14,092 nucleotides of DNA from a virus (IMGVR_UViG_2541047894_000002:1-14092); one strand, 5' to 3'. Counted from the stretch's first letter, positions 397-13,799 are shown. Notes: generated by a model not told the origin, from the letters alone. Numbers and translations: made by a program.

Positions 397-1746
397 GCAA
401 CACCAAAAGCGGTGAAGTCTGCCTATGACAATGCTGAAAAACGTCTTCAGAAAGATCAGAACGGTGCGGATATTCCGGGAAAGGATACCTTCACGAAAAA
501 TATCGGTGCCTGTCGTGCTTATAGCGGTGCTTTGAGCACTGAATCCGGAAACTGGACAACCGCTCAGTTTATTGAATGGCTGGATTCCCGTGGTGCATTT
601 AATCATCCGTACTGGATGTGCAAAGGCTCCTGGTCATATGCAAATAACAAAATCATTACGGATACCGGATGTGGTGATATCCACCTGGCTGGTTGTGTCG
701 TCGAGGTCATGGGAACTAAATCTGCAATCACTATCCGAGTGACCACGCCGACAACATCAAGCGGTGGCGGTACAACCAGCGCGCAATTCACTTACATAAA
801 TCATGGGGACGGCTACTCCCCCGGCTGGCGTCGTGACTGGAATCGTCAGGGCGACGCAATGACCGGAACGATTAATCAGGATGGCGGAAGCCAGAATGCC
901 TATATGTCTACGGCCTTATGTTCAGGCACCAGAGGCGGCAAAAAATATCTCAGAAAGTTTCGTGGTGGAGAAGGAGACACTATCTGGCATGAAACAGTAC
1001 AGGCTGGGGTAATTCGCTGGGCGACAGGTAATACTGATGCTCAGGAAGAATTATCACTCAGCTCCGCTTATGGTCTCCGTTCTAGAGGTGAAATTACATC
1101 ACTCAGTGCTAATGGTCTGCGCATTGCTTATGGCAATTATGGATTCTTTATCAGGAATGATGGTGGCAGCACATATTTAATGCTGACGACCTCTGGCGAT
1201 AAATTTGGGACATGGAACGGTTTAAGGCCGCTGACTATCAATAACGCTAATGGCGGAGTGTCAATGGGGCATGGCCTGAGTGTTACTGGTGATATTGTCT
1301 CAAGTACCAAAGTACGTGCCGGTAGCGGGAAAAAACTCACGGTCAGCAGCAGTAATACATCCACGAAGGAAGCCGCATTCAATTTGTGGGGAAACTCAAG
1401 TCGCCCGGTGGTAGCTGAATTAGGTGATGATGCAGGCTGGCATTTTTACAGCCAAAGAAATACAGATAACAGCATCACTTTTGCTGTTAACGGGCAGGTA
1501 TCACCATCTAACTATGGCAACTTTGATTCACGTTATGTCCGGGATATTAGACTTGGTGGTGCGTCATCCTATAAACCAGCAAATAACGGGACAACATGGA
1601 CGCATCAGACTCCATCTGGTTGCGCGTATACCGGGATAATTGTTCAGGATACAGGCTCAAATTCTGCCGATAATATTGGTGGTGTTTATTACAGACCAAT
1701 TCAAAAAAATATTAATGGCACATGGTATAACGTATCGAGTGTTTGA
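1..1746 (+). CDS. Phage tail fiber protein (5' partial; frame 1 is open from base 1, ORF track shows only from the internal GTG at 412)
   Basis: Frame 1 has no stop from 1 to the TGA at 1744-1746. The repeat motif KGLVQLSSATNSDSETLAATPKAVK resembles the lambda Stf / phage tail fibre repeat. C-terminal 440 aa is Gly/Ser/Thr/Asn-rich as in receptor-binding domains. Followed by a tail fiber assembly gene with overlapping stop/start region. Confidence 0.85.
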   Translation, partial: ATPKAVKAAYDLANGKYTAQDATTARKGLVQLSSVTNSDSETLAATPKAVKAAYDLANEKYTAQDATTARKGLVQLSSATNSDSETLAATPKAVKTAYDLANGKYTAQDATTARKGLVQLNSAINSDSETLAATPKAVKSAYDNAEKRLQKDQNGADIPGKDTFTKNIGACRAYSGALSTESGNWTTAQFIEWLDSRGAFNHPYWMCKGSWSYANNKIITDTGCGDIHLAGCVVEVMGTKSAITIRVTTPTTSSGGGTTSAQFTYINHGDGYSPGWRRDWNRQGDAMTGTINQDGGSQNAYMSTALCSGTRGGKKYLRKFRGGEGDTIWHETVQAGVIRWATGNTDAQEELSLSSAYGLRSRGEITSLSANGLRIAYGNYGFFIRNDGGSTYLMLTTSGDKFGTWNGLRPLTINNANGGVSMGHGLSVTGDIVSSTKVRAGSGKKLTVSSSNTSTKEAAFNLWGNSSRPVVAELGDDAGWHFYSQRNTDNSITFAVNGQVSPSNYGNFDSRYVRDIRLGGASSYKPANNGTTWTHQTPSGCAYTGIIVQDTGSNSADNIGGVYYRPIQKNINGTWYNVSSV

Positions 1747-1748
1747 TT

Positions 1749-2282
1749 ATGATGCATTTAAAAAATATAAAACCGGGCAATCCAAAAACCAAAGAACAGT
1801 ACCTGTTAACTAAAAACTCCAGCGTTGTCTGGTTATTCGATGAAGATGGTAAAAACTGGTATGATGAACAAAAGAACTTTCAACCAGATACTATAAAGAT
1901 TGCATATGATGAAAATAATGTCATATGCGACGTGCAAATGGATGTAACTGCAATTTGCCCAGAAGGAAAAAGTGTTGTCGAGTTGCCCAATATCACAGCA
2001 AACCGACGTGCTGATATTTCAGGTAACTGGATGTTTAAGGATGGCGCAGTCATTAAACGTGTGTATACCGAAGAAGAGCAACGATTGCAGGCTGAAAACC
2101 AGAAACAAAGGTTATTACAACAGGCCAGAGAAAAAACGCAGTTCTGGCAAACCCAGCTTACTTTGGGGATTATCACTGATTCAGACAGACAGCAACTGAT
2201 GAACTGGATGCGATACGTGCAACAGATTGAAGCCACTGATACCTCTGAATTGCCCGTTACATTTCCGGAACAACCAGAATAA
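1749..2282 (+). CDS. tfa: Tail fiber assembly protein (Tfa / P2 gpG-like chaperone)
   Basis: N-terminus MMHLKNIKPGNPKTKEQY... and C-terminus ...TDTSELPVTFPEQPE match the conserved Tfa family pattern as recalled; sits immediately downstream of tail fiber gene. ORF track start at 1743 is a TTG; ATG at 1749 preferred. AT-rich relative to neighbours. Confidence 0.85.
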   Translation: MMHLKNIKPGNPKTKEQYLLTKNSSVVWLFDEDGKNWYDEQKNFQPDTIKIAYDENNVICDVQMDVTAICPEGKSVVELPNITANRRADISGNWMFKDGAVIKRVYTEEEQRLQAENQKQRLLQQAREKTQFWQTQLTLGIITDSDRQQLMNWMRYVQQIEATDTSELPVTFPEQPE

Positions 2283-2315
2283 ACGATAAGACCAGAATAC
2301 CGGGTCTTATCGTTT
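2281..2315. terminator. Putative bidirectional hairpin terminator between convergent tfa and U
   Basis: aaACGATAAGACC-agaataccg-GGTCTTATCGTtt: 11-13 bp perfect stem at 2283-2293 / 2303-2313, followed by tttctgtt on + strand; lies in the 41-bp gap between the tfa stop (2282) and U stop (2324). Confidence 0.45.
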
Positions 2316-2323
2316 CTGTTAAA

Positions 2324-2812
2324 TCAGAACAGCCCTTTAACTGAACTGGCCGCGTTGTTAATGGATGCTGTCACCTTATCTTTGAAGCCGGACAGCATAT
2401 CGCTGAACGATGAGGATTGCAGGCGCTCCCGCAAATCCTCATCACAGCGTTCAAGGGTCAGTGAAAATTCTATCTTTTTCGCCTTACCGTAGCGATCAAA
2501 CTCGGAACTGGTCGTATTCGTTCCGGTCAGGACATACATGCCGTAAATCTGCCCGACGCCATCAATAAGAGGCCAGGGGCGTCCTGTATACGCCTGCGTG
2601 GTCAGCAGCGACAGCGACACTTCGCCACCTGTAATTTCAGGATAAAGCACACCAGAAAGAACAATACGATCATCGCCTGCCCCGATATACTGCCAGCTTG
2701 CTGAACGGTTAACGCGTTCATTTTTCACATGTCGCCAGCTTTTATTTTGCTGTAACTGCTGATGCGGCAATGTGCGCAGCTCAAAAACAAACATGCCGTA
2801 GATCATCATCAT
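2324..2812 (-). CDS. U: Tail protein gpU-like
   Basis: Translation MMMIYGMFVFELRTLP...SWRH...GAGDD...LSGVLYPEITGG...WPLIDG...IYGMYV...TTSS resembles P2 gpU as recalled. ORF track start 2818; GAGGAG RBS abuts the first ATG, so the ATG at 2812 (8-nt spacer) is preferred. 6-nt gap from T stop (2825). Confidence 0.8.
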   Translation of the reverse strand: MMMIYGMFVFELRTLPHQQLQQNKSWRHVKNERVNRSASWQYIGAGDDRIVLSGVLYPEITGGEVSLSLLTTQAYTGRPWPLIDGVGQIYGMYVLTGTNTTSSEFDRYGKAKKIEFSLTLERCDEDLRERLQSSSFSDMLSGFKDKVTASINNAASSVKGLF

Positions 2813-2824
2813 GGCCATGACTCC

Positions 2825-5641
2825 TCAATCTTTATCGTAAAAACTGCCACGCCCGGCACGGGCGCGCCGTTCCATTTCTGCCCTGACCATTTCACCGACC
2901 AGTTTCGCTAGTTCGCGGGGATTCTGTGTAACAACGTTATGCAGATGAACATGAATTTCACCGCCAAATCCGGAGGCAACAGGTTCCCGGTTACGGGAAG
3001 TTGCAGGAACTGATGCCACTGGCGATCGTATGGCCTCCGCCACCGGGCGGGAGCTGGCCGCAACAACAGGGACCAGCGCCGGAGGCAGCGGAGCCGGAAC
3101 CACGGGTGTGATATTAATTGCGGTGGCAGGCTTACTGACCTGCGCAATCTTCCGCTCCTGCCACTCCCCACGAACAACAAGTGCGCGGGGCAGGTTCTTA
3201 AAGACAATATCGCCGGGGCCAATGCGTTTTTTCGTCTCATCAACCAGCTTACCTGTGTTATCAGCAATTTTGCTGAGTCTGCGTAGCGTCCCGGTATTGC
3301 TGTCTGTGAGCGGTTTATTGTCTTTGGGTTTATCACCTCCGGTGCCATTGCCATTTTCCACAGGCTTCGGCGGATTGATTTTCGCCAGGTCCCCCTGAAG
3401 CAAGGCAACCTTGTCCTGAAGAATGGCCGCACGCTGTGCGTCTTCGATTTTCTTTCTCGCCCTTTCCGCTTCATCCGGAAGAACACCGAGTTTTTCAAGT
3501 ATCCACGCCAGCGTATCCAGCAACATTTTTGCAGGCGTCAGAACAAGCTGTAACGCGCCACCAAGAACGTTACCGAATATCTCGCCAGCACTGGTACATT
3601 TATCCAGCGTTTCCTTGCTGGACTCCATCGGTGACAGCAGCGATTTGAACCAGTTAAACACCTGGCTGATCCCGCTTCCGATTGCGTCAAAAACAGGACC
3701 AAACTGTTCAAAGGTTTCGCGCAACGGGATCAGCCTTTCCATAATCCCGCTGAACACCCCGGCAAAAAATGCCCTGATGGGATCCCAGTATTTCGAGATA
3801 AGAACGGCAGCTCCGGCAAGCGCAGCCACGATAAGACCAACCGGACTGAATAGCGCCCCGATAGCACCTCCCAGCAAAGAAACGGAACCCGTCACCATTC
3901 CCCATAGTGCTGGCAGGACCCTGACAGCATTCATTGATCCGGTCAGGAGAGAAAAACCAAGACGCAGTTTTGCCAGCGGGCCAGCAAGCACACCAATAGC
4001 CAGCGACAACGAGCCAACCGTTGCAGTCATTGCCAGCAACGCACCGCCTGCTATCAGTAGCTGGCGCGTCAGTACCGGATGGGCCTGCGCCAGCGCCGTC
4101 ACCCTTGATACCACCCACGTGAGCCACTGCGTGACAGAACGCAGCGGACCGTCAATCAGATCTGCAATGCGGATGCGCAACCCTTCCCATGCACTGCCGA
4201 GTGATTTCAGATCGCCGTCAAGGTTGTTGGCCATAACCTTTGCTGTGCGTTCAGCCTCACCGCGCGCGCCTTCAAGTTCTTTTCTCAGTTTGGGTAAGGA
4301 ACCGTCACCCGCTGCATCAACGAGCGCCATAAACGATGTGAAAGCCTCTTCTCCGGCAATGTCCTTAAAGAACGATACCCGGTCAACTTCCCCGTATTTG
4401 CGGGTGGCTTTATAAAGGTCAGCCAGCACATCCTCCATCGGGCGCATTTTGCCGTTCGCGTCAGAGACTGCCACACCAAGCTCTTTCAGCGCCTCTGCTG
4501 CTGCCTTTGGCGGTGATGCCAGACGAGCCAGGCTGGCACGCATTGCCGTCCCGGCATCACTCCCTCTGATACCCATATTCGCCAGCACGCCCGCCATCGC
4601 TGCGGCCTGCTCCAGCGATATTCCCAGCTTACCCGCCACCGGACCTGCATATTTCATGGTTTCACCCAGTGCGCGAAGGTCAGTGTTGGTACGGGTAAAC
4701 GCTGCGGTGAGTGTGTCACCGACCCGGTCCATCTGGTCAGCAGAAAGGCCGAACTGCGTCAGGATATTTGAGCCAATATCTGCCGTCTCGCCGAGATCCA
4801 TACCGCCAGCCGTTGCCATGCTCAGCACGCTGGGAAGCGCAGCCTGAATGGCCTGCGGAGTGAAGCCAGCCATTGCAAGAAATGCCTGTCCACTGGCGGC
4901 ATCGCCTGCGGTAAACTGCGTTTCAGAGCCAAGTTTTAACGCCTGCTCACGCAGCGCCTTAAACTGCGGGCTGTTCTGGTCGATTCGCGTCAGTGCCTGA
5001 ACGCGGGACATCTCTTTGCCGAACCCGATCGCAGGCTGCAAAAAACGCCCCGCAGCATAGCCGCCCGCCGCTGCCGCACCAATTGCCAGCGCACCACCTG
5101 TTTTCAGTTTTCCCGCAGTTTCCTGCGCGCGCGAATACCGCTCACGCGCCCGCGTTACACGCGCAAGTGCCTGCCGTTCGCGTTCAAGCTGGTTGTTGTA
5201 CTGTTCGGTGCGTCTGATGGCCTGCTGGATGGTGTTATCGCTGCCTGTCAGGGAAATGCCGTGGCGTTTCAGCTCTCCGCCAAGCTCCCGCATTTTCTGA
5301 ATTTCCCGTGTGCGCGATTCATTCAGGCGTTCAAGCCGGGTGCTTAACTGCTGCATCAGCTTTTGTTGCTTTTCGCTGAGCACTGTACCCGTGCGTTGTA
5401 ACTGATTAAGGGCGTTAAGCTGGCGTCGTGCTTTCACGATACCCGCATCCGCTTTACTGACAGCGTCGCGGGCGCGCTCAAATGAACGCGCCTGACGCTC
5501 GAGATTTTTGATCGCCCCCTGCGTTCGCTGGATGGAGTCACCAAACTGCCCCATCAGGCGGCGGGCGTTTTCGGCAGGCCGGGTCAGCCTGTCAACGGCG
5601 CTGAAAGCGACCCGGATATCAAGAGTCTTCATTGTCTGCAT
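2825..5641 (-). CDS. T: Tail tape measure protein (gpT-like), about 939 aa
   Basis: Large Ala/Gly/Leu-rich protein with coiled-coil N-terminal part and hydrophobic glycine-rich central segments, downstream of the E/E' chaperone pair as in P2-type tail modules. Start ambiguous: ATG at 5641 (MQTMKTL...) or 5632; ORF track reports upstream extension to 5668. Start overlaps end of E'. Confidence 0.85.
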   Translation of the reverse strand: MQTMKTLDIRVAFSAVDRLTRPAENARRLMGQFGDSIQRTQGAIKNLERQARSFERARDAVSKADAGIVKARRQLNALNQLQRTGTVLSEKQQKLMQQLSTRLERLNESRTREIQKMRELGGELKRHGISLTGSDNTIQQAIRRTEQYNNQLERERQALARVTRARERYSRAQETAGKLKTGGALAIGAAAAGGYAAGRFLQPAIGFGKEMSRVQALTRIDQNSPQFKALREQALKLGSETQFTAGDAASGQAFLAMAGFTPQAIQAALPSVLSMATAGGMDLGETADIGSNILTQFGLSADQMDRVGDTLTAAFTRTNTDLRALGETMKYAGPVAGKLGISLEQAAAMAGVLANMGIRGSDAGTAMRASLARLASPPKAAAEALKELGVAVSDANGKMRPMEDVLADLYKATRKYGEVDRVSFFKDIAGEEAFTSFMALVDAAGDGSLPKLRKELEGARGEAERTAKVMANNLDGDLKSLGSAWEGLRIRIADLIDGPLRSVTQWLTWVVSRVTALAQAHPVLTRQLLIAGGALLAMTATVGSLSLAIGVLAGPLAKLRLGFSLLTGSMNAVRVLPALWGMVTGSVSLLGGAIGALFSPVGLIVAALAGAAVLISKYWDPIRAFFAGVFSGIMERLIPLRETFEQFGPVFDAIGSGISQVFNWFKSLLSPMESSKETLDKCTSAGEIFGNVLGGALQLVLTPAKMLLDTLAWILEKLGVLPDEAERARKKIEDAQRAAILQDKVALLQGDLAKINPPKPVENGNGTGGDKPKDNKPLTDSNTGTLRRLSKIADNTGKLVDETKKRIGPGDIVFKNLPRALVVRGEWQERKIAQVSKPATAINITPVVPAPLPPALVPVVAASSRPVAEAIRSPVASVPATSRNREPVASGFGGEIHVHLHNVVTQNPRELAKLVGEMVRAEMERRARAGRGSFYDKD

Positions 5642-6148
5642 TCCCGCTGCGAAGTGCCGCCCGCTCACGCCAGCTAACCACTTCGCCGGGCGTCATCATG
5701 AAGATTTCGGCGGGCGACCAGTTAAAAATAACGGCAATATCTGCCACAAAGTCTTCTATGTGCTCAAAGCACACAACCGTGATCAGGCTTCCGTCGCCTG
5801 TTCGTTCTTCCCGCCAGAGTCCGCACCGCTCAAAAAATTTACGGCAACCACACATAACTGAATAAAGTCACGGGATGCCATTTTTTTGATCGTCACTTCA
5901 TCCAGTCGCGGTGATGTCACGCGTGACAGCAGCGTAAACATGGATTCCGCTTTCAGATTCAGCACATCAGACAGCGACAAATCTCGCAGAGATCCAGCCT
6001 GCTCAATAGCTCCGGTGATCTCCACATACGTGATTTTTTCGCCGCCTCGCTCAATTGGTTGGGTAAGTTTTACGCCACGCTCACTGGTTTCTTTCACAGT
6101 GTCAGCAACGACCGTGTTTTCGGTATCGATGTTTTTCGTCTCTTTCAT
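5619..6148 (-). CDS. E+E': Tail assembly chaperone E+E' fusion produced by programmed -1 ribosomal frameshift (predicted about 176 aa)
   Basis: ORF 5619..5855 lies in the -1 frame relative to E (start coordinates 6148 mod 3 = 1, 5855 mod 3 = 2). Slippery heptamer T_TTT_TTG occurs in E in the correct register (0-frame codons aaT TTT TTG at - strand 5837..5831). After the slip the reading continues ...NFF-ERCGLWREERTGDGSLITVVCFEH... to the TGA at 5621-5619. Confidence 0.6.
5783..6148 (-). CDS. E: Tail assembly chaperone gpE-like (121 aa, 0-frame product)
   Basis: Located between tail tube FII and tape measure T as in P2; AAGGAG RBS 8 nt upstream of ATG at 6148; contains the frameshift heptamer near its 3' end. 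Confidence 0.8.
   Translation of the reverse strand: MKETKNIDTENTVVADTVKETSERGVKLTQPIERGGEKITYVEITGAIEQAGSLRDLSLSDVLNLKAESMFTLLSRVTSPRLDEVTIKKMASRDFIQLCVVAVNFLSGADSGGKNEQATEA
5831..5837 (-). other. Programmed -1 frameshift slippery site TTTTTTG (P2 E/E' type)
   Basis: + strand caaaaaa at 5831-5837 = - strand TTTTTTG; in-frame as T_TTT_TTG relative to the E reading frame; -1 frame open downstream for 70 codons. Confidence 0.6.
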
Positions 6149-6202
6149 CAGGAAACTCCTTTCAGTCAGAGGCGACGCACTGCGCCGCCTGCATATTACT
6201 TA

Positions 6203-6715
6203 TCAGCCAAGCCCGAGCGCAGAACGGATGCGATCGGGCACAATGTCCTTGCCGTCCTTCCGGTAAATGAAGTTCAGCAGGTCAATCTCCCACAACGGGC
6301 GATCGTTAACACTCAGCTTGTAGTAGGTGTTTTTAATGGCGTAAGTGTGTGATGTGGCTTCGCCCTGTTTGGCTTCCCCCATATCAATTTCCGTCACACG
6401 TCCGCGCATTTCGACTTCATACAGGTCGCTTTCTGCATCGGTGTAATATTCACCCGCAAAACGCAGCAGCGTGCCGTCAATCGTGCCGCCATACTTAAGG
6501 AACAGCTCACGAACTGCGCCCCCCATGACAAAGCTCGCATCAAGCGCGGAGTCGTCCAGACCGAGATCAATACTTACCGCACCCATCATGCCACCACCCC
6601 GGTAGCTGTCGGTTTTGCGCGTCAGCTTAGGCAGAGTGACGGACGTCACCTTACCCACTTCGTTTTCACCATCCACAAACAGCGTAAAAAAGCGAAGATG
6701 TTTTGGCACAGCCAT
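6203..6715 (-). CDS. FII: Tail tube protein (P2 FII-like)
   Basis: MAVPKHLRFFTLFVDG...VTLPKLTRKTDSYRGGGMMG...DLGLDD...RFAGEY...VEMRGR..EID.GE.KQGE matches the P2 FII pattern as recalled; GGGAGG RBS; start overlaps FI stop (TGATG). Confidence 0.85.
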   Translation of the reverse strand: MAVPKHLRFFTLFVDGENEVGKVTSVTLPKLTRKTDSYRGGGMMGAVSIDLGLDDSALDASFVMGGAVRELFLKYGGTIDGTLLRFAGEYYTDAESDLYEVEMRGRVTEIDMGEAKQGEATSHTYAIKNTYYKLSVNDRPLWEIDLLNFIYRKDGKDIVPDRIRSALGLG

Positions 6716-7899
6716 CAGGCACCTCCCAGCACCGCAAATGCGGGTTCAAAGTATTCATCAGTAAACGTCTGGTAAAGCTCCATGTCTTCCAGTGGCGGAA
6801 CGGGCGTATATTTGTAGCGAATACGCACACGTCCCTGACGTAAATCCGTGGTGCTGTTATCCACCACGTCATACCAGCACTCCGCGCCAATCAGTTTCCC
6901 GGCAGTAACCAGTGAATCCAGTTTTGCCCTGATGGCACTGATAACATCCTTCACGTTCGCAGGCGTCAGTGGACTGTCGATGGTTTCAAACTGCGCTTCC
7001 GCAATTGAATCAGCCAGCACCTGTGCGGTTCGGGTATACACCTCAAAGATGTAGGCGTTCGTTTCCGGTGTGCGGTTGCCCCAGAAGCGGAACCCGTTGC
7101 GACGAATAATGGTCGTGATTTCTTTGTTGTTAAGGCTGTTGGCATCACTGTCTTCGGCCTGCAACGACCAGAAAACATGCCTCGACATCCCCAGCACATT
7201 TTTAACCGGAACGTTGGACAGCGATTTGTGCCATCCCTGCTCATGGTCAATGTACGCACGAAGGCCGCACGCATAGGCAGGCGCGGGGAACGTTTCGTTT
7301 TTGCCACTTTTCGGGTTGTAGGCGATGAAGTCCGGCCATAAGAGCATCACCTCACGTTCGTTGAATTTCTGGCGGTAGGTAATCGCCGCAGCCATCGTGT
7401 TACAGCCGTGACATGAGGCATACACAAACGCGCGCAGTTTACCTGCAATCACGCACAGGGATTTTGTTACAGCCTCCGTGTCCAGCTCCGGCGCGGCCAG
7501 AATACGCGGACGGTATCCGATGCTTTCATCCTGCTCTGCAACAAGCAGCGCATACATCCCCGTATAGCTGCCGTCATCCTCAGAACCACCGATAACCAGT
7601 TGATCCTGCGTCTTTCCGTCTTCTTCTTTGTGTTCAGCCACGCGAACGACGATCACCTTTGTGCTCACCTGGTCTGCGATGGCCTTAAGCGCACGATAAA
7701 GCGTCCCCGTTGTCCCGCATTTTCCCAGCACGTCATTGACGCGGGTCAGCAGTGTGGGCTTGTTCAGCGGGAACAGCTTCGCGTCCGCATCATCCGCCGT
7801 TGCCACGATACCGATAACGCTGGAATCAACATCGTTAATCGCTGTTACCAGGTCGGTATTTTCCGTAACACGGGCACCATGAAAACGAGTTTCACTCAT
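6715..7899 (-). CDS. FI: Contractile tail sheath protein (P2 FI-like)
   Basis: 394 aa; motifs ...FPLNKP...LRAFVYASCHGC...WPDF...EQGWHKSLSNV...IRRNGFRFWGNRT...NYTRTAQV...RYKYTPVPPLE... match P2 FI sheath as recalled; AAGGGG RBS 8 nt upstream of ATG at 7899. Confidence 0.9.
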   Translation of the reverse strand: MSETRFHGARVTENTDLVTAINDVDSSVIGIVATADDADAKLFPLNKPTLLTRVNDVLGKCGTTGTLYRALKAIADQVSTKVIVVRVAEHKEEDGKTQDQLVIGGSEDDGSYTGMYALLVAEQDESIGYRPRILAAPELDTEAVTKSLCVIAGKLRAFVYASCHGCNTMAAAITYRQKFNEREVMLLWPDFIAYNPKSGKNETFPAPAYACGLRAYIDHEQGWHKSLSNVPVKNVLGMSRHVFWSLQAEDSDANSLNNKEITTIIRRNGFRFWGNRTPETNAYIFEVYTRTAQVLADSIAEAQFETIDSPLTPANVKDVISAIRAKLDSLVTAGKLIGAECWYDVVDNSTTDLRQGRVRIRYKYTPVPPLEDMELYQTFTDEYFEPAFAVLGGA

Positions 7900-8056
7900 A
7901 GCTTCAGCCCCTTGTATCCGTTAAATGATTCGGCAACAATCATCACCCACCACGCGCGTAATCTCACCCCTGCGCCGTTCTCCCGCCACGGCGACAACAA
8001 AAAGCAGTAACCCCCTACGCACGCACATGCGACCATGCCGCACAGGGAGGGAACAG
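7900..8056. promoter_or_regulatory. Divergent intergenic region between FI (-) and D (+); presumed promoters for both
   Basis: 157-bp non-coding gap flanked by divergently oriented start codons with RBSs on each side. No exact TGT-N12-ACA (Ogr/late-promoter type) dyad found by eye; only one TGT in the region (7913-7915). Confidence 0.3.
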
Positions 8057-9166
8057 ATGACCGATACCACCATGCAATTGCTCAGTCAGAGCACAGACCC
8101 CGTGAAAATGCCGGATTTTGATATTCTCGCGGAGGGGGAAACACTGTCCGGCGTGGCAGAGCGCCTGATGAGCCTGTCACTGACCGACAACCGGGGATTT
8201 GAAGCGGACCAGCTCACCATCACGCTGGATGATGCGGATGGTCAGTTGCAGCTACCGCCACGGGGCGTGCGCCTGACGGTTCTCATTGGCTGGAAAGGAG
8301 AACCGCTGACAGAAAAAGGCACTTACATTGTTGATGAAATCGCTCACGAAGGACCGCCGGACAGGCTGACGGTTTCAGCCAGAAGCGCAGATTTTCGGGA
8401 TGAATTTAACGTTAAACGTGAGGTGTCCTGGCATGATGTGACCGTTGAGCGCGTGGTATCCGCCATCGCTCATCGGTATGGTCTGAAACCGCAAATCAGC
8501 GAAATGCTGATGGATATAGAAATCGACCACGCCGACCAGACCGAAGAAAGCGACATGTCCTTTCTTACGCGCATGGCGGAAATGCTGGGCGCAATCACCA
8601 CAGTAAAAAGCGGTAATCTGTTATTCATCATGCCCGGTGGTGGCGTGAACGCACAGGGCCAGCCGTTGCCATCGTTCGCCATCACACGCAGCAGCGGCGA
8701 TCGCCATCAGTTCCGCATTGCTGACCGCGAGGCGTATACGGGTGTACGCGCCTACTGGCTTGATCTTAATTACGGGAAAAAGAAAAAAGTCAGCGTGAAA
8801 CGCCGCAAACCGCAAAAACCCAAAAAGGAGAAAAGCAGCAGCCGTGAAGGTGATTATATGGAAGGCGCGGAAGGCAACGTGTTTGTGTTACGCAAGACTT
8901 ATCAGAACGAGCAGGCAGCAAGACGCGCAGCGGCGGCAAAGTGGCAGCAGCTACAACGCGGAGCCGCAGCGTTCTCCATCACACTGGCACGTGGACGCGC
9001 AGAACTCTACCCCGAAATGCATGGCACGGTAACAGGATTTAAAAGCGAAATTGATAATCAGGACTGGATTATTGCAAAAGCCGAGCACACCATTGATAAC
9101 AGCGGCTTTACCACGCAGCTTGAACTTGAGGCAAAAATCCCGGAATGGATAGCAGAAACAGCTTGA
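8057..9166 (+). CDS. D: Tail protein D (P2 gpD / phage late control D family)
   Basis: 369 aa from ATG at 8057 with GGAGGG RBS 5 nt upstream; motifs LSLSLTDNRGFEADQL.I.LDDADGQ, SARSADFR, SWHD.T, FLTR.AE, ITRS.GDRH.F.IADR.AYTGV.A.W, lysine-rich KKKKVSVKRRKPQKPKKEK linker, REGDYMEG..NVF, FSI.LA.GRA, NSGFTT.LELE match gpD as recalled. ORF-track N-terminal extension from 7925 rejected. Confidence 0.85.
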   Translation: MTDTTMQLLSQSTDPVKMPDFDILAEGETLSGVAERLMSLSLTDNRGFEADQLTITLDDADGQLQLPPRGVRLTVLIGWKGEPLTEKGTYIVDEIAHEGPPDRLTVSARSADFRDEFNVKREVSWHDVTVERVVSAIAHRYGLKPQISEMLMDIEIDHADQTEESDMSFLTRMAEMLGAITTVKSGNLLFIMPGGGVNAQGQPLPSFAITRSSGDRHQFRIADREAYTGVRAYWLDLNYGKKKKVSVKRRKPQKPKKEKSSSREGDYMEGAEGNVFVLRKTYQNEQAARRAAAAKWQQLQRGAAAFSITLARGRAELYPEMHGTVTGFKSEIDNQDWIIAKAEHTIDNSGFTTQLELEAKIPEWIAETA

Positions 9167-9211
9167 TCAGCTAAGATGTATTGCACGCCTACCCCCTTCA
9201 GTTTTCTGACT

Positions 9212-9235
9212 GTCCGCTCTGTGCCAAGAGCGGAC
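9212..9235 (+). terminator. Hairpin downstream of D (weak candidate terminator / island boundary element)
   Basis: GTCCGCTCT-gtgcca-AGAGCGGAC, 9-bp perfect stem, followed by atatataattt (AT-rich, not a clean U-tract). Lies at the GC-content transition into the AT-rich island. Confidence 0.25.
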
Positions 9236-9334
9236 ATATATAATTTCGTACTGTATCAATCGAAAGGAATCAGCTCCTTCCTATCTCAAATATGAGACAC
9301 TGCTTATAGCACCACTGGAAATTGGTTAAACATC

Positions 9335-11374
9335 TCAACTTTGCCAATCATCAGCTATCTGTTGCCAATTAACTTTCCGAGGTTCTTTTGTAGTGCTAGA
9401 CCACACATCCCAAAAATCAGGATCATCAGATTGCGGTCGTTGTTTTTCAGTAAGCTCTTTCATTCTAACTAAAACAGGAAGTTCTGAAGCCCATCCAAGT
9501 AAAATAGCATGCCTAGATGGTAACGATGGCAGCTCTCTCAACAGCCCTCTCATATTATCTGGAACAAGTCTATGTACTTGCTCTTGATCTCTATCATTAC
9601 TAATCCTGTGCAACAAAAAAGTATTACATTGAGATAAAACCGTCGGAGATAGCTCTGATGGCCTTTGGGAAGAAACAACAAGGCCTAGCCCAAACTTTCT
9701 TCCTTCCCGTGCAATCTTTTCAAACACCTTGCAACATATATCAGAGACTGACTGAGTTTCACTATCTTCCTTGTAACGTTTAATAAACGTATGCGCTTCT
9801 TCTGCAACTAAAACTGTTGGTAGCGGCCTTCCATTTAATCTTCGATAACGTTGTAGTGCTTCAAAAGCCACCCTAGAAATTACAGCTGTTACCAAATGAA
9901 TTATTTCATTTGGTACTAGAGATAAATCTATAACAGTTATAGATCCTTGTTCATTTTTACCGAGAAAAGTGTCTAACCAATTAGTTAAACTTATAGGCTT
10001 TACAGAATCATTGGTTACTGCACTAATACGAGTGTCACCTAGCATTGTTCGAATACGAGTCAAAAGAAACTCAACGAATTGTTCTGTACCTGTTTCTTGA
10101 GCCAGAGCTTCGAGATATGCGACAAAATCATCGCCTTTAAAACGCATAGGCGCATCTTCGCTTTTTGGAAGAAGTTCTTGTTCATCTCCCCCTAGAGCTG
10201 TATATGCATCTCTGAATCCATTAATCAACAACTCAATCTCGGAAACAACAGGCTTTGCTGGCCAAGAAGATCCACTTCGTGAAGAAAGATACGTATTTAT
10301 TGTGTTTATTAGCTTATCGAGCGATTTATCAACAATTCTCTCGTTTAAGATAGAAATACTATCTCTCCAAGAACCCAAAGTTTCAACCAAACCTTTAGCA
10401 GATCCACTATTCACATATATCTGACCTTGACTTGCCTGCTGTCTCATAGATACAAGAAGGATACCGCAAAAGCGTTTGGCTTGAATTTTCACATCATCTT
10501 CTGATAGAAGATTATTCCTCATTGCCCTCAAAGCACGACGTAGTAAAGGAAGTTGCACCTTTGAACTTGCTTGAGTGAAAGCAGCCCACTCAGAACTATT
10601 CCATAACCATGAAGGTACTTTAAGATCCATCTCTCCGACATCGATGTTAGCCTCTACACGTAATAGTTTACCCTTATATCTTGATTCTGGCCCTAAAGCT
10701 CTACTATATTCTCCGTTCGGATCAAGTATTATAAATCGAGCATTTGGAGATTTTCCCTGTTGTAAAACAGCATCAAGAGACCATTGAATTAAGCCGGCCA
10801 CCGAACATGATTTACCACTACCCGTATTACCTAAAACAGCTATATGTCGTCCGAAAAGTCTATCGGGGTCTACTTTTATTTCAGCATTGTTAGCTAGGGG
10901 GCTATCCCCTATTTTTACCCTTCTATTATCACCTGATTCAATTATTGATTGTAATTGTCGGTCAGTAGGCAAAAGCACAGAGTCACCAACCGAAGGGAAA
11001 GCATCAGTTCCTCTCGTGAACCTGAAACCTTCGTTTTTTCTATCAACTCTCAATGTACCAACTGGATTGATACTAAGCTTTTTAAGTGGGAAAGGAAGGT
11101 CTATCAACCCAAAATCTTGTAAGCCTCTTCTTTTGGGATATGGCGAGTTTTCTATTGCAATCCACTCAACTTGCCCAACAAGAAACCCGTCATCACTACG
11201 GATTAAAATATAACTATTTATTCTAGGAAAATTACGAGGCGCCCCACCTTGAAGTGATACTGAATCAGGAGAATCAATCTCTAAAGACACCCTAATTTCA
11301 TTAGGTGATACAAACTCAACAGTTCCAATTCTTAGTTGTTCTATTTTTTCTATTGGTAAATAACTCATTGTCAT
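9335..11374 (-). CDS. HerA-like (FtsK/HerA superfamily) ATPase, partner of SIR2 protein
   Basis: Walker A HIAVLGNTGSGKS; Walker B-like PTVLVAEEAHTF; GLGLVVSSQRPSEL (arginine-finger region typical of HerA/DUF87); N-terminal beta-rich region (GTVEFVSPNEIRVSLEID) consistent with a HAS-barrel. ATG at 11374 overlaps upstream stop (ATGA); GAGGT abuts that ATG, so ATG at 11368 (6-nt spacer) may be the real start. Confidence 0.8.
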   Translation of the reverse strand: MTMSYLPIEKIEQLRIGTVEFVSPNEIRVSLEIDSPDSVSLQGGAPRNFPRINSYILIRSDDGFLVGQVEWIAIENSPYPKRRGLQDFGLIDLPFPLKKLSINPVGTLRVDRKNEGFRFTRGTDAFPSVGDSVLLPTDRQLQSIIESGDNRRVKIGDSPLANNAEIKVDPDRLFGRHIAVLGNTGSGKSCSVAGLIQWSLDAVLQQGKSPNARFIILDPNGEYSRALGPESRYKGKLLRVEANIDVGEMDLKVPSWLWNSSEWAAFTQASSKVQLPLLRRALRAMRNNLLSEDDVKIQAKRFCGILLVSMRQQASQGQIYVNSGSAKGLVETLGSWRDSISILNERIVDKSLDKLINTINTYLSSRSGSSWPAKPVVSEIELLINGFRDAYTALGGDEQELLPKSEDAPMRFKGDDFVAYLEALAQETGTEQFVEFLLTRIRTMLGDTRISAVTNDSVKPISLTNWLDTFLGKNEQGSITVIDLSLVPNEIIHLVTAVISRVAFEALQRYRRLNGRPLPTVLVAEEAHTFIKRYKEDSETQSVSDICCKVFEKIAREGRKFGLGLVVSSQRPSELSPTVLSQCNTFLLHRISNDRDQEQVHRLVPDNMRGLLRELPSLPSRHAILLGWASELPVLVRMKELTEKQRPQSDDPDFWDVWSSTTKEPRKVNWQQIADDWQS

Positions 11375-12783
11375 ACCTCAACTTCGGCTGAATTACCTAA
11401 CTCTTTGAACTGCATAAAGCCTCTTTGTTTGAGCAACTCTGCCATCTTGATTGATGCTTTATCAATAGCTGGTTTAGGTAAATAGTTATCAACTAAAGTT
11501 TTGAAGTCTCCTAAATGATCTCCCATCAAAAGGGTAATCTGTGCTTTTCTTCCACTATTACTAATGAAACGCATAATTCTGCCAAGTGGATCGCCAAAGG
11601 CTATTATTACTATATGAGTGGAAGGTACCGTAAGCATGTCTTCAATTACTCTATTGATATGCTCATCACCAAAGCTATAACCATAAGTGACTAATGTGCT
11701 ATTTGGACGGCTAGTTGCTGCTGCCAGATCTCGAAATAGCTCAACATAAGGATACTCGGCTGTTTCTCTGTCTTTTACTGAATTAGGGTAAATCATCAGT
11801 TTTTCATAGCCATTGCTTTGATGACCTTCGGCTTCCAAAAACGGCTCAACAGAACGTGCTCCAAAGGGTAAGCCAAAGCGCCTAATCGCATTATTTTGTT
11901 CATGCCAATCAAGGGAACCATGAAGTTTAGTAAAACGTGCCACGCCCTCCAAGTATCTTGGTTCACCACGGATTCCAGGAGGATTATAATGATAATCAAC
12001 TTCTAATCTTGAGGATCGAAATACTGGAGCAATACTTCCTACAAAGCGATCAATAAGTCTTAAACCAGCAAGCTCAGCACCCACTTCAATAATACGGTCA
12101 TAATTTGTTGTAAAGATATGTAGCCTATCGCGAGTGGCAGTTCTACTTGCAAAGCTCATCAAAAAACTAACTAGATAGTTGAAAGTTTCCTCTTTCCGGG
12201 CTGGTTCAGCAGTTTTGATTAAATATTCTCCTTTAATTATAGATTTAGAAAACTCCCCCAAGCATCTAGAAAGCTCGCCTTTGAGCTCGCCCAAGTCTGC
12301 TTTTAAGTTTCTATAAGCAGAATAAGGAGGTGGCGGATTTTCTGGTTGAGGAGTATTTAACACCGTTAAAATTTCGAGACCTTTAATAAGTTCATTGATA
12401 GTTCTAATTTGATCTTCTATATTTCCTCTATCGCGACCTGCAGCTTTTGCAGCCTGAGTGGAAAATTCATCTATTTCGCTTTTACATACTTTTAAATCAT
12501 TAATCCACCCCATCCCTACTGGAGATAAACCTGTAGCTGATTTTTGAATAGCCGAGCTTAAGCCTGCACCGATTAATAAATTTAAATGCTCTGATTGGAA
12601 GAGAGCTGTTAGCCAGGGCTCAATATTTTGGCGCAATTTCTCAATTGATATTTCTGCCCCCTGTTCTCCCCATACACAGTTCTTCGAGAGGATAAAAGGA
12701 TGAGAATCAGCATGCTCGCCAGAATTAGATGATAGATCAATAATTTCTGATATACTGCCAACTTTTATATGTTGAATACTCAT
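11371..12783 (-). CDS. SIR2-family (SIR2_2 / DUF4020-like) protein, predicted NAD+-consuming effector
   Basis: Motifs in order: LNLLIGAGLS (Gly-rich NAD-binding loop), IFTTNYDRIIE (TTNYD), KLHGSLDW (catalytic-His region), YGYSFGDEHINRVIEDM. ORF track start at 12843 is TTG; ATG at 12783 (MSIQHIKVG...) preferred but weak SD, so start is uncertain (12783-12843). Stop overlaps HerA start. Confidence 0.75.
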   Translation of the reverse strand: MSIQHIKVGSISEIIDLSSNSGEHADSHPFILSKNCVWGEQGAEISIEKLRQNIEPWLTALFQSEHLNLLIGAGLSSAIQKSATGLSPVGMGWINDLKVCKSEIDEFSTQAAKAAGRDRGNIEDQIRTINELIKGLEILTVLNTPQPENPPPPYSAYRNLKADLGELKGELSRCLGEFSKSIIKGEYLIKTAEPARKEETFNYLVSFLMSFASRTATRDRLHIFTTNYDRIIEVGAELAGLRLIDRFVGSIAPVFRSSRLEVDYHYNPPGIRGEPRYLEGVARFTKLHGSLDWHEQNNAIRRFGLPFGARSVEPFLEAEGHQSNGYEKLMIYPNSVKDRETAEYPYVELFRDLAAATSRPNSTLVTYGYSFGDEHINRVIEDMLTVPSTHIVIIAFGDPLGRIMRFISNSGRKAQITLLMGDHLGDFKTLVDNYLPKPAIDKASIKMAELLKQRGFMQFKELGNSAEVEV

Positions 12784-13207
12784 AAATGCACTTCTTTTAT
12801 TTGTGTTAAAAAACATACTTTTGTAGAGGCAAACGAGTGCCAAGAGTATGAAACTTAGCGATTAAGTTCGAATCTTACACCTCCCAAAGCCTCTGAGAAT
12901 TATCAACCTAACCCAAAGGAACTCAATCAGCGTTTTATTTTAGCACGACTAAATAACTAGTAGATAGCGTCAAAGACAAACCGGGGAGATAAAAACTTAC
13001 AACACTGCCACCAGTAAAATCATCTACATACCAACAAGTTGCCTTCAATCACGTAGAATAATCCTACTAGTGCATAGTCAATCTCGACTACTTACTCAGT
13101 GAAAATTCAACTGCAAACTTCTGGTTTTTACTCAAAGCAAGCAGTTAGTTGGAATCAGTATTAGTACAACTTAGAATAATAGAAACACCACGTTAAGGGA
13201 GGTCGCT

Positions 13208-13468
13208 ATGTTCCGTTGTCCACTTTGTGGCGCGTCTGCCCGTATCCGCACCAGTCGTCCGGAAAATGACTCAAACACCGTGCGGCAAAAGTATTACCAG
13301 TGTAATAACCTGGAATGCGGCGTATGCTTCTCAACACTGGAAGCTTTTCATAAGTTCACATCAAAACACACCTCAGAAGTTCATTCTTCAGAAGACATAC
13401 CGTGGCAGGCTCTGCCAGCTTCACACAGGGGGAACAATCAGATGAGTTTGCCCTTATCTCAGAATTAA
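13208..13468 (+). CDS. ogr: Ogr/Delta-family zinc-finger late transcription activator
   Basis: MFRCPLCGASARIRTSR...YYQCNNLECGVCF: Cys-X2-Cys ... Cys-X4-Cys arrangement and N-terminal MF.CPLC....A..RTSR pattern of P2 Ogr as recalled; strong RBS AAGGGAGG 5 nt upstream; 86 aa. Confidence 0.85.
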   Translation: MFRCPLCGASARIRTSRPENDSNTVRQKYYQCNNLECGVCFSTLEAFHKFTSKHTSEVHSSEDIPWQALPASHRGNNQMSLPLSQN

Positions 13469-13528: not shown

Positions 13529-13792
13529 ATGGTCGGAGGGAATACCCGAAGGCCAGATGTGGAAAGGCCCCGGAAAACATCTCTGTTTAACCGAGGCCCT
13601 AACCGCATTACCTTGACAAGTGAAAGGTTAGCGCCTCTCCTGAAAAGGAGCAAGTGCTATGTCGCAAAAATCGCTTACGGCCATCACGTTCTGCGTGACG
13701 GCAATCCTCATCATCTGGATGCTGCACGGTTCGCTGTGCGAAATACGGATGAGCTTCTGGGGAGCGGAGTTTGCGGCGTTCTTACAGTGTAA
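13529..13792 (+). CDS. mok-like overlapping reading frame covering the hok-like toxin ORF (true start uncertain)
   Basis: ORF in a different frame (start 13529 mod 3 = 2, hok-like 13659 mod 3 = 0) spanning almost the whole toxin ORF and ending 7 nt before its stop, as in hok/mok/sok loci. No independent sequence support for translation. Confidence 0.3.
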   Translation: MVGGNTRRPDVERPRKTSLFNRGPNRITLTSERLAPLLKRSKCYVAKIAYGHHVLRDGNPHHLDAARFAVRNTDELLGSGVCGVLTV

Positions 13793-13799
13793 GCAGTAA
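13659..13799 (+). CDS. Hok/Gef-family type I toxin (46 aa small membrane peptide)
   Basis: atg tcg caa aaa ... cag taa encodes MSQKSLTAITFCVTAILIIWMLHGSLCEIRMSFWGAEFAAFLQCKQ: N-terminal hydrophobic helix followed by the SLCEIR motif and AAF, characteristic of Hok/Gef peptides. RBS AAAAGGAG 8 nt upstream. Below the ORF-track size cutoff. Confidence 0.65.
   Translation: MSQKSLTAITFCVTAILIIWMLHGSLCEIRMSFWGAEFAAFLQCKQ

Follow-up and report, generated by a model that had tools for sequence, protein, structure and literature searches.

A SIR2-HerA operon, probably anti-phage, carried as cargo between genes D and ogr of a P2-like Escherichia coli prophage

Gene content of the insert between D and ogr

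The viral DNA IMGVR_UViG_2541047894_000002:1-14092, whose full 14,092 nucleotides are called the window here, is an Escherichia coli P2-like prophage sequence beside ihfA, and between the tail gene D and the late-gene activator gene ogr it carries an AT-rich insert of about 4.0 kb, which encodes a SIR2-family NADase candidate and a HerA-type ATPase. Mapping of the junctions against the empty site of a related locus (L002) places the insert proper at positions 9176-13174; the island that an earlier note, made from the sequence alone, had set at 9240-13200 is therefore present, with slightly different ends. Its guanine-cytosine (GC) content is 0.390 compared to 0.545 in the tail genes (2324-9166), and this gap of 15.5 points agrees with the roughly 15 points estimated in that note. 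The left border of the slot is D (8054-9166, plus strand; 370 amino acids from ATG 8054), which matches Pfam Phage_GPD at 3.4e-17 and whose homologues carry the annotation "late control D family protein," and the right border is ogr (13208-13468, plus strand; 86 amino acids), identified by Pfam Ogr_Delta at 4.4e-14 and by RefSeq annotation. In the empty relative only 40 bp lie between the D stop codon and the ogr ATG, which bears out the view that the island splits two normally adjacent genes and, together with the GC gap, that the cargo was acquired horizontally.

In strain HSP60 the insert lies in a P2-like prophage that begins with an integrase next to btuC and ends with ogr and hok next to ihfA, with head, tail, lysis and replication genes all present, and this prophage looks complete from integrase to ogr. 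The hok gene encodes a 46-amino acid toxin of the Hok/Gef family and is found in the window at 13659-13799, after ogr at the prophage end. When the entire window was scanned with Rfam, no family reached the gathering score, and this includes hok/sok-type RNAs near hok.

The SIR2 gene is contained in a minus-strand open reading frame (ORF) spanning 11371-12843, in which the ATG at 12783 is the likely start, giving a protein of 470 amino acids (11371-12783) and leaving 12784-13174 as non-coding DNA. It is followed on the same strand by the HerA gene (9335-11374), which encodes 679 amino acids from an ATG at 11374 or 677 amino acids from an ATG at 11368. The 4-nt ATGA overlap on which the earlier note based its translational coupling does exist, as the HerA ATG at 11374 runs into the SIR2 stop codon TGA at 11371-11373. 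However, the functional HerA start is more likely the ATG at 11368, 2 nt past the SIR2 stop and hence free of overlap, because the methionine of this third codon (M3) is conserved in 34 of 34 aligned homologues and the RefSeq protein starts there. In the homologues, it is the methionine equivalent to M3 that itself forms the ATGA overlap. Whichever start is used, a 4-nt overlap or a 2-nt gap leaves the two genes tightly coupled, and no further ORF of at least 60 amino acids was found in the insert. All of the motifs quoted in the earlier note are present in the translations, namely GAGLS, TTNYD, LHGS and YGYSFGDEH in SIR2 and GNTGSGKS, VAEEAH and VVSSQRP in HerA.

Upstream of the SIR2 gene, a consensus scan points to a candidate sigma-70 promoter of the operon, TTGAGT-16-GATAAT (12899-12926, minus strand), which is located about 115 nt from the SIR2 ATG and falls within upstream DNA that is conserved with the Citrobacter koseri locus L008.

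Family assignment of the two proteins

The upstream protein matches Pfam SIR2_2 (PF13289) at 4e-8 with 33.9 bits against a cut-off of 24.5, and over its full length the PADLOC SIR2 model PDLC04079 at 2.5e-155. The downstream protein matches Pfam DUF87, the "Helicase HerA, central domain," at 2.7e-23, and the PADLOC HerA model PDLC04098 at 3.1e-252 over model positions 4-684 of 686. Both assignments had been predicted from motifs, and the SIR2-HerA domain pairing and gene order are verified by these profiles as well as by annotation and homologue alignments. The prediction of a HAS-barrel on HerA fared differently, since isolated N-terminal regions searched against Pfam (residues 1-177 in the case of HerA) gave neither a HAS-barrel nor any other domain at E ≤ 10.

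All PDB matches of the SIR2 protein are SIR2 subunits from SIR2-HerA systems, namely the E. coli Nezha chain 8J4U_A (3.6e-21 alone, 1.6e-28 with a family profile), Staphylococcus aureus 8YHX and Paenibacillus 8W9L. The divergence from characterised systems, which the earlier note had left to database searches, is thus that of distant relatives, with a best E-value of 3.6e-21. In the alignment to 8J4U_A, the presumed catalytic residues N227 (in TTNYD) and H288 (in LHGS) pair with N168 and H227, and both are invariant in 36 SIR2 homologues of 56-89% identity. AlphaFold single-chain models of the two proteins were built from alignments of 34-36 sequences, and a Foldseek search with the SIR2 model picked only SIR2 chains of SIR2-HerA complexes, at a weak template modelling (TM) score of about 0.3.

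The key residues of HerA comprise Walker A at G182-S189 with K188, the Walker B pair E525/E526, EEAH at 525-528 and SSQRP at 568-572; in 34 homologues, the most distant of them at 53% identity, Walker A (GNTGSGKS), EEAH and SSQRP do not vary. A HerA profile matches Paenibacillus HerA 8WIV at 9.3e-61, and its positions 11-264 and 458-679 align to 8WIV residues 11-240 and 390-601, an alignment that takes in the published beta-barrel (residues 1-132) and the RecA-like domains. The unaligned middle region of HerA is predicted to be all-helical in the AlphaFold model, which would match the expectation for an alpha-bundle insertion. The best PDB matches for HerA are, however, the HerA chains of HerA-DUF4297 systems (9C1M, 8XAU), at 1.2e-48 alone and 1.5e-63 with the profile.

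Three related defence systems were considered as alternative assignments and rejected because the partner gene that defines each of them is absent. In HerA-DUF4297 systems only the HerA resembles the window's protein, and the partner here is clearly a SIR2 protein (SIR2_2), with no DUF4297 match in Pfam or PADLOC. Thoeris combines a ThsA SIR2 protein with a ThsB TIR protein, but neither protein of the window has a TIR domain and the insert holds no other ORF of at least 60 amino acids. In the case of SIR2-associated short Argonaute, the PADLOC model Aga_SIR2 gives only a weak match (9.5e-15), and the neighbouring gene is HerA. By each sequence-level criterion tested, the pair is accordingly classed as a SIR2-HerA system whose SIR2 protein is distant from the solved or tested examples.

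Comparison with characterised systems

The E. coli SIR2-HerA system Nezha (8J4U, 8SU9, 8SXX) shares with the window an operon of two genes in which HerA follows SIR2, the aligned Asn and His of SIR2 (N168/H227 for N227/H288), the TTNYD, KLHGSL and FGD-HIN motifs and the RecA-like core of HerA. It is nevertheless distant, as the SIR2 match (E = 3.6e-21) covers residues 171-412 only and the HerA match has E = 1.5e-36; its proteins are shorter, with a SIR2 of 415 amino acids compared to 470 and a HerA of 610 compared to 679, and the window's pair matches a different PADLOC sub-model (PDLC04079/04098). In the SIR2-HerA system of Paenibacillus sp. 453MF (8W9L, 8WIV, 8WLD; PMC11472057), the beta-barrel, the RecA-like domain and part of the arm of HerA are covered by the alignment to the profile of the window's HerA family, and its alpha-bundle insertion appears to be matched by the middle region modelled as all-helical. 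The C-terminal arm of HerA is shorter in the window than in Paenibacillus, the SIR2 proteins are very distant (E = 4.7e-9), and the Paenibacillus host is Gram-positive.

The Nezha system of classical-biotype Vibrio cholerae (PMC11559045) is of the same type as the window's pair, has the same catalytic residues by alignment and likewise resides on a mobile island. Its tested SIR2 probably belongs to the E. coli Nezha subfamily, because its residues are numbered N168/H227, as in the E. coli Nezha type. Another V. cholerae SIR2-HerA pair, located on a putative SXT/R391-type integrative and conjugative element (ICE), is 86-88% identical to the window's proteins, and our literature search found no experiments on it. 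HerA-DUF4297 systems (9C1M, 8XAU, 8ZIQ) also consist of two genes, HerA and an effector, and provide the best HerA sequence matches, whereas their effector is a DUF4297 nuclease and that of the window is a SIR2 protein.

Conservation and spread of the module

The SIR2-HerA module is shared as DNA with other species. In blastn comparisons, it is 85% identical to the Citrobacter koseri locus L008 over 9283-12955 (minus strand) and 79% identical to the V. cholerae locus L007 over 9332-12849, and from the extent of the Citrobacter homology the mobile unit includes about 170 bp upstream of SIR2. The same gene order with a 4-nt overlap is found in Thermanaerovibrio, Vibrio and Citrobacter. In C. koseri the pair forms a small chromosomal island, and in V. 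cholerae L007 it is flanked by F-type transfer genes (TraC, TraN) and ssb/RecT/YqaJ genes, a setting that we read as an SXT/R391-type conjugative element. In Thermanaerovibrio velox (L005 2346-13410), the pair is located between hsdM and hsdS of a type I restriction-modification operon that also holds a Fic/RhuM gene and adjoins a BrxC/PglY-like gene, so that one defence system is nested in another. The module moves between the cargo sites of mobile elements, and both genes are under purifying selection, with ratios of nonsynonymous to synonymous substitution (dN/dS) of 0.06-0.11 against the Citrobacter and Vibrio copies.

A total of 193 plasmid records contain relatives of nearly full length, with 60-86% identity over at least 80% of the query. 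Homologues named as Synergistota, Bacillota, Nitrospira or Gemmatimonas are about 60% identical in SIR2 and about 55% identical in HerA, and the subfamily is unusually conserved, its pairing being kept across phyla. Of 5,426 complete E. coli genomes, 20 contain the insert itself, in every case on the chromosome, and in 15 of these its identity is at least 99%. It is absent from 50,697 phage records by megablast, and a protein search there gave only SIR2 fragments of about 27% identity. In two of the E. coli hits, both isolates from pigs (H6 and H7), an IS4-like element, ISVsa5, lies inside the insert and SIR2 is no longer annotated as such.

Interpretation and rival explanations

We regard the insert as a self-contained cargo cassette ("moron") of a complete P2-like E. 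coli prophage that encodes a SIR2-HerA (Nezha-type) anti-phage system, and give this reading a probability of roughly 85%. Its anti-phage role and the depletion of nicotinamide adenine dinucleotide (NAD+) would follow from family membership. P2-like prophages are well-known carriers of defence cargo, SIR2 with HerA has been reported in the P4 satellite hotspot, and in the complexes of Paenibacillus and S. aureus a SIR2 oligomer is placed on a hexamer of HerA, which activates the NADase (PMC11472057, PMC11514289). By analogy, the lysogen would express the operon from a promoter that belongs to it, with transcription antisense to the late genes of the phage, and the two products would assemble into a large complex of 12 to 14 SIR2 subunits on a HerA hexamer. 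Upon infection by another phage, HerA would relieve the autoinhibition of SIR2, and the resulting loss of NAD+, possibly aided by HerA/SIR2 action on DNA, would halt phage replication. Such an arrest would protect the lysogen population and, in the proposed mechanism, therefore also the prophage.

Several observations weigh against this reading. The SIR2 protein is distant from every SIR2-HerA SIR2 that has been solved or tested, with even the best match limited to residues 171-412, and by sequence HerA is at least as close to the HerA of HerA-DUF4297 nuclease systems, so that HerA alone does not specify the effector. Pfam recognises no HAS-barrel in HerA, and the AlphaFold models are of low confidence, with a predicted local distance difference test (pLDDT) score of 62 for SIR2 and 52 for HerA and below 50 for HerA residues 1-191. 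The number of sites returned by the consensus promoter scan is not above chance for the region, which affects the promoter assignment. The SIR2 gene appears to be disrupted by the IS4-like element in the two pig isolates, and the system would thus be dispensable. Finally, our literature search found no paper mentioning the RefSeq accessions of the subfamily and no experiment on it.

Three other explanations each have some basis, yet less support than an NAD+-depleting anti-phage cassette. Defence could be mainly DNA-directed, with the HerA helicase/ATPase and a SIR2-associated nuclease attacking phage DNA and NAD+ hydrolysis being secondary, as the kinship of HerA with the solved chains of ATPase-nuclease HerA-DUF4297 systems might suggest. 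We consider this unlikely, given that alanine substitution of N168 or H227, that is, mutation of the NADase active site alone, abolishes the immunity conferred by V. cholerae Nezha (PMC11559045), that the catalytic Asn and His are invariant in the subfamily, and that neither Pfam nor PADLOC detected a nuclease domain in either protein. The operon could also be inert cargo, unexpressed or not triggered by coliphages, which hitch-hikes with the prophage and gives the lysogen no phenotype. Such a view accords with its rarity (20 of 5,426 complete E. coli genomes), with the copies in two genomes that annotation suggests to be disrupted by an insertion sequence (IS), with the lack of the insert in any sequenced phage isolate (50,697 phage records) and with a promoter that is only a candidate from a consensus scan. 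It is nonetheless quite improbable, as the reading frames of both genes are intact, dN/dS is 0.06-0.11 against homologues at 79-85% DNA identity, the catalytic motifs are all retained and the module recurs in ICEs, plasmids and defence islands.

A role that is selfish for the prophage, in which the pair would either secure its retention (addiction or stabilisation) or attack P4-type satellites or closely related P2-like phages, seems to us slightly more remote still. The cassette does have a prophage as its carrier and a hok/gef toxin gene as a neighbour, other P2-hotspot cargo is known to act against related P2-like phages, and NAD+ depletion is intrinsically toxic. On the other hand, no antitoxin-like partner is present, the module is also found in non-phage settings (a chromosome, a type I restriction-modification operon and plasmids), and SIR2-HerA is not known to be linked to the maintenance of plasmids or prophages. 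An anti-phage SIR2-HerA cassette acting through NAD+ thus remains the explanation that we favour.

The D-ogr junction as a cargo slot

The features by which a moron or hotspot is recognised are found at this junction, as the insert lies between conserved phage genes, is absent in a close relative, deviates in GC content and varies in content among relatives. Among 39 loci in which D and ogr are both kept, chosen as a spread sample, 18 are empty and 21 contain cargo or an IS. Nine occupied loci (the window, L003, L004 and L010-L015) hold nine unrelated AT-rich cargos with GC contents of 0.33-0.42, which encode SIR2-HerA, YecA, DUF3800, GmrSD, PIN, ParA, ComF with a hypothetical protein, TIR with SIR2, and a 479-amino acid hypothetical protein; the pair of TIR and SIR2 fills the slot in another strain (L014). 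The known cargo hotspots of P2-like phages, old/tin between A and Q and Z/fun, and morons in general resemble the window in being AT-rich and placed between conserved genes, with defence-type cargo, a content that varies among relatives and, putatively in the case of the window, independent transcription, and they differ from it in position. The classical A-Q hotspot (gpA-portal) of the same prophage, outside the window at L017 12941-16311, contains genes for an S8 family peptidase and an AAA family ATPase, so that accessory cargo is present at two places in this prophage.

The nine cargos share one insertion position, with a copy of CAACTTAG at each end and a single copy in the empty site. 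In the window, the left short direct repeat is CAGCTAAG (9168-9175, plus strand), where the empty L002 holds a single GCAACTTAG, and the right one is CAACTTAG (13167-13174, plus strand), both identified by comparison with the empty site and the occupied loci. The cargos in the window (9166-9240 and 13105-13207), L003, L004 and L010-L015 are further bounded by imperfect inverted repeats of about 32 nt, with the consensus CTWAGWTGTAYTAGCTCAGACTCCAACTGACA common to the two ends. Over 100 nt, the flanks form a long inverted repeat in L003 (54% identity) and L013 (44%) as compared to 33±2.6% in shuffles, and in L010 only the first 45 nt or so match; in the window the similarity over the full 100 nt does not reach significance, and the match is confined to roughly the first 13 nt.

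The conserved flanks also contain putative transcription signals. A GC-rich hairpin followed by a T/A-rich tail (9211-9236, plus strand), a terminator-like site with related hairpins in L003, L010 and L013, lies in the conserved left flank of the slot and is probably the terminator of the D transcript. Across the right junction, a consensus scan suggests a candidate ogr promoter, TTGGAA-17-TAGAAT (13149-13177, plus strand), whose -35 box is supplied by the conserved right-hand flank of the cargo. This element, as TTGGAG/TTGGAA-17-TAGAAT, stands 30 nt upstream of the ogr ATG in the nine occupied loci, and the annotated -35 and -10 boxes of P2 ogr are found at the same distance from the ogr ATG with unrelated sequence. 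The cargo may in this way rebuild an ogr promoter once ogr has been severed from read-through of D.

Taken together, the repeat pattern resembles what a transposon-like or cassette-swapping mechanism would leave behind, rather than a series of independent illegitimate insertions. Neither D-ogr as a named hotspot nor its repeat structure was found in the running text of the papers that were searched. That the D-ogr junction of this E. coli P2-like lineage is a defence-cargo hotspot not explicitly described before, with an exchange architecture of its own (an 8-bp direct repeat, inverted repeats of about 32 nt and a right end that seemingly rebuilds the ogr promoter), is a possibility we put forward tentatively, and one we would rather doubt than assert.

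Other features of the prophage

The sheath, tube, E, tape-measure and U genes (2324-7899, minus strand) run opposite to the tail-fibre genes (412-2282, plus strand) and to D (8054-9166, plus strand), unlike in P2, where T, U and D are co-directional. This arrangement is common to related E. coli prophages and is thus a feature of the lineage, and in the window D and the sheath gene share a divergent region of 155 bp. In many genomes, RefSeq annotates D as a truncated 267-amino acid "VgrG/Pvc8 family" protein with an overlapping antisense pseudo-fragment (window 7925-9166; L001 19144-19997). The D gene of the window is an intact ORF of 370 codons from ATG 8054, similar to the 366-amino acid D proteins annotated elsewhere, and the truncated version is probably an annotation artefact.

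A second variable slot, located between gene U and the tail-fibre assembly gene, is empty in the window (2282-2324, 41 bp) and holds an invertase-like recombinase in L002 (884-1483) and L004 (880-1479) and a serine O-acetyltransferase in L003 (3731-4303). The GC content dips to 0.38-0.40 at 1500-2250, a stretch that takes in the tail-fibre assembly gene as well as the 3′ end of the tail-fibre gene itself and may represent a swapped host-range module. The P2 late-promoter motif TGT-N12-ACA has no exact match anywhere in the window.

Significance

The operon represents a known kind of NAD+-depleting defence, and an existing PADLOC sub-model already captures the pair; the current understanding of how SIR2-HerA acts is therefore unchanged by the finding. 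What it adds to the defence cargo of P2-like prophages is an uncharacterised, very widespread and strongly conserved SIR2-HerA subfamily, which is also found in loci resembling SXT/R391 conjugative elements. The D-ogr junction is a further place to look for prophage-borne defence genes, and the many unannotated "hypothetical" cargos in its slot are candidate new ones. Moreover, lysogens with the SIR2-HerA cassette may resist therapeutic or typing phages.

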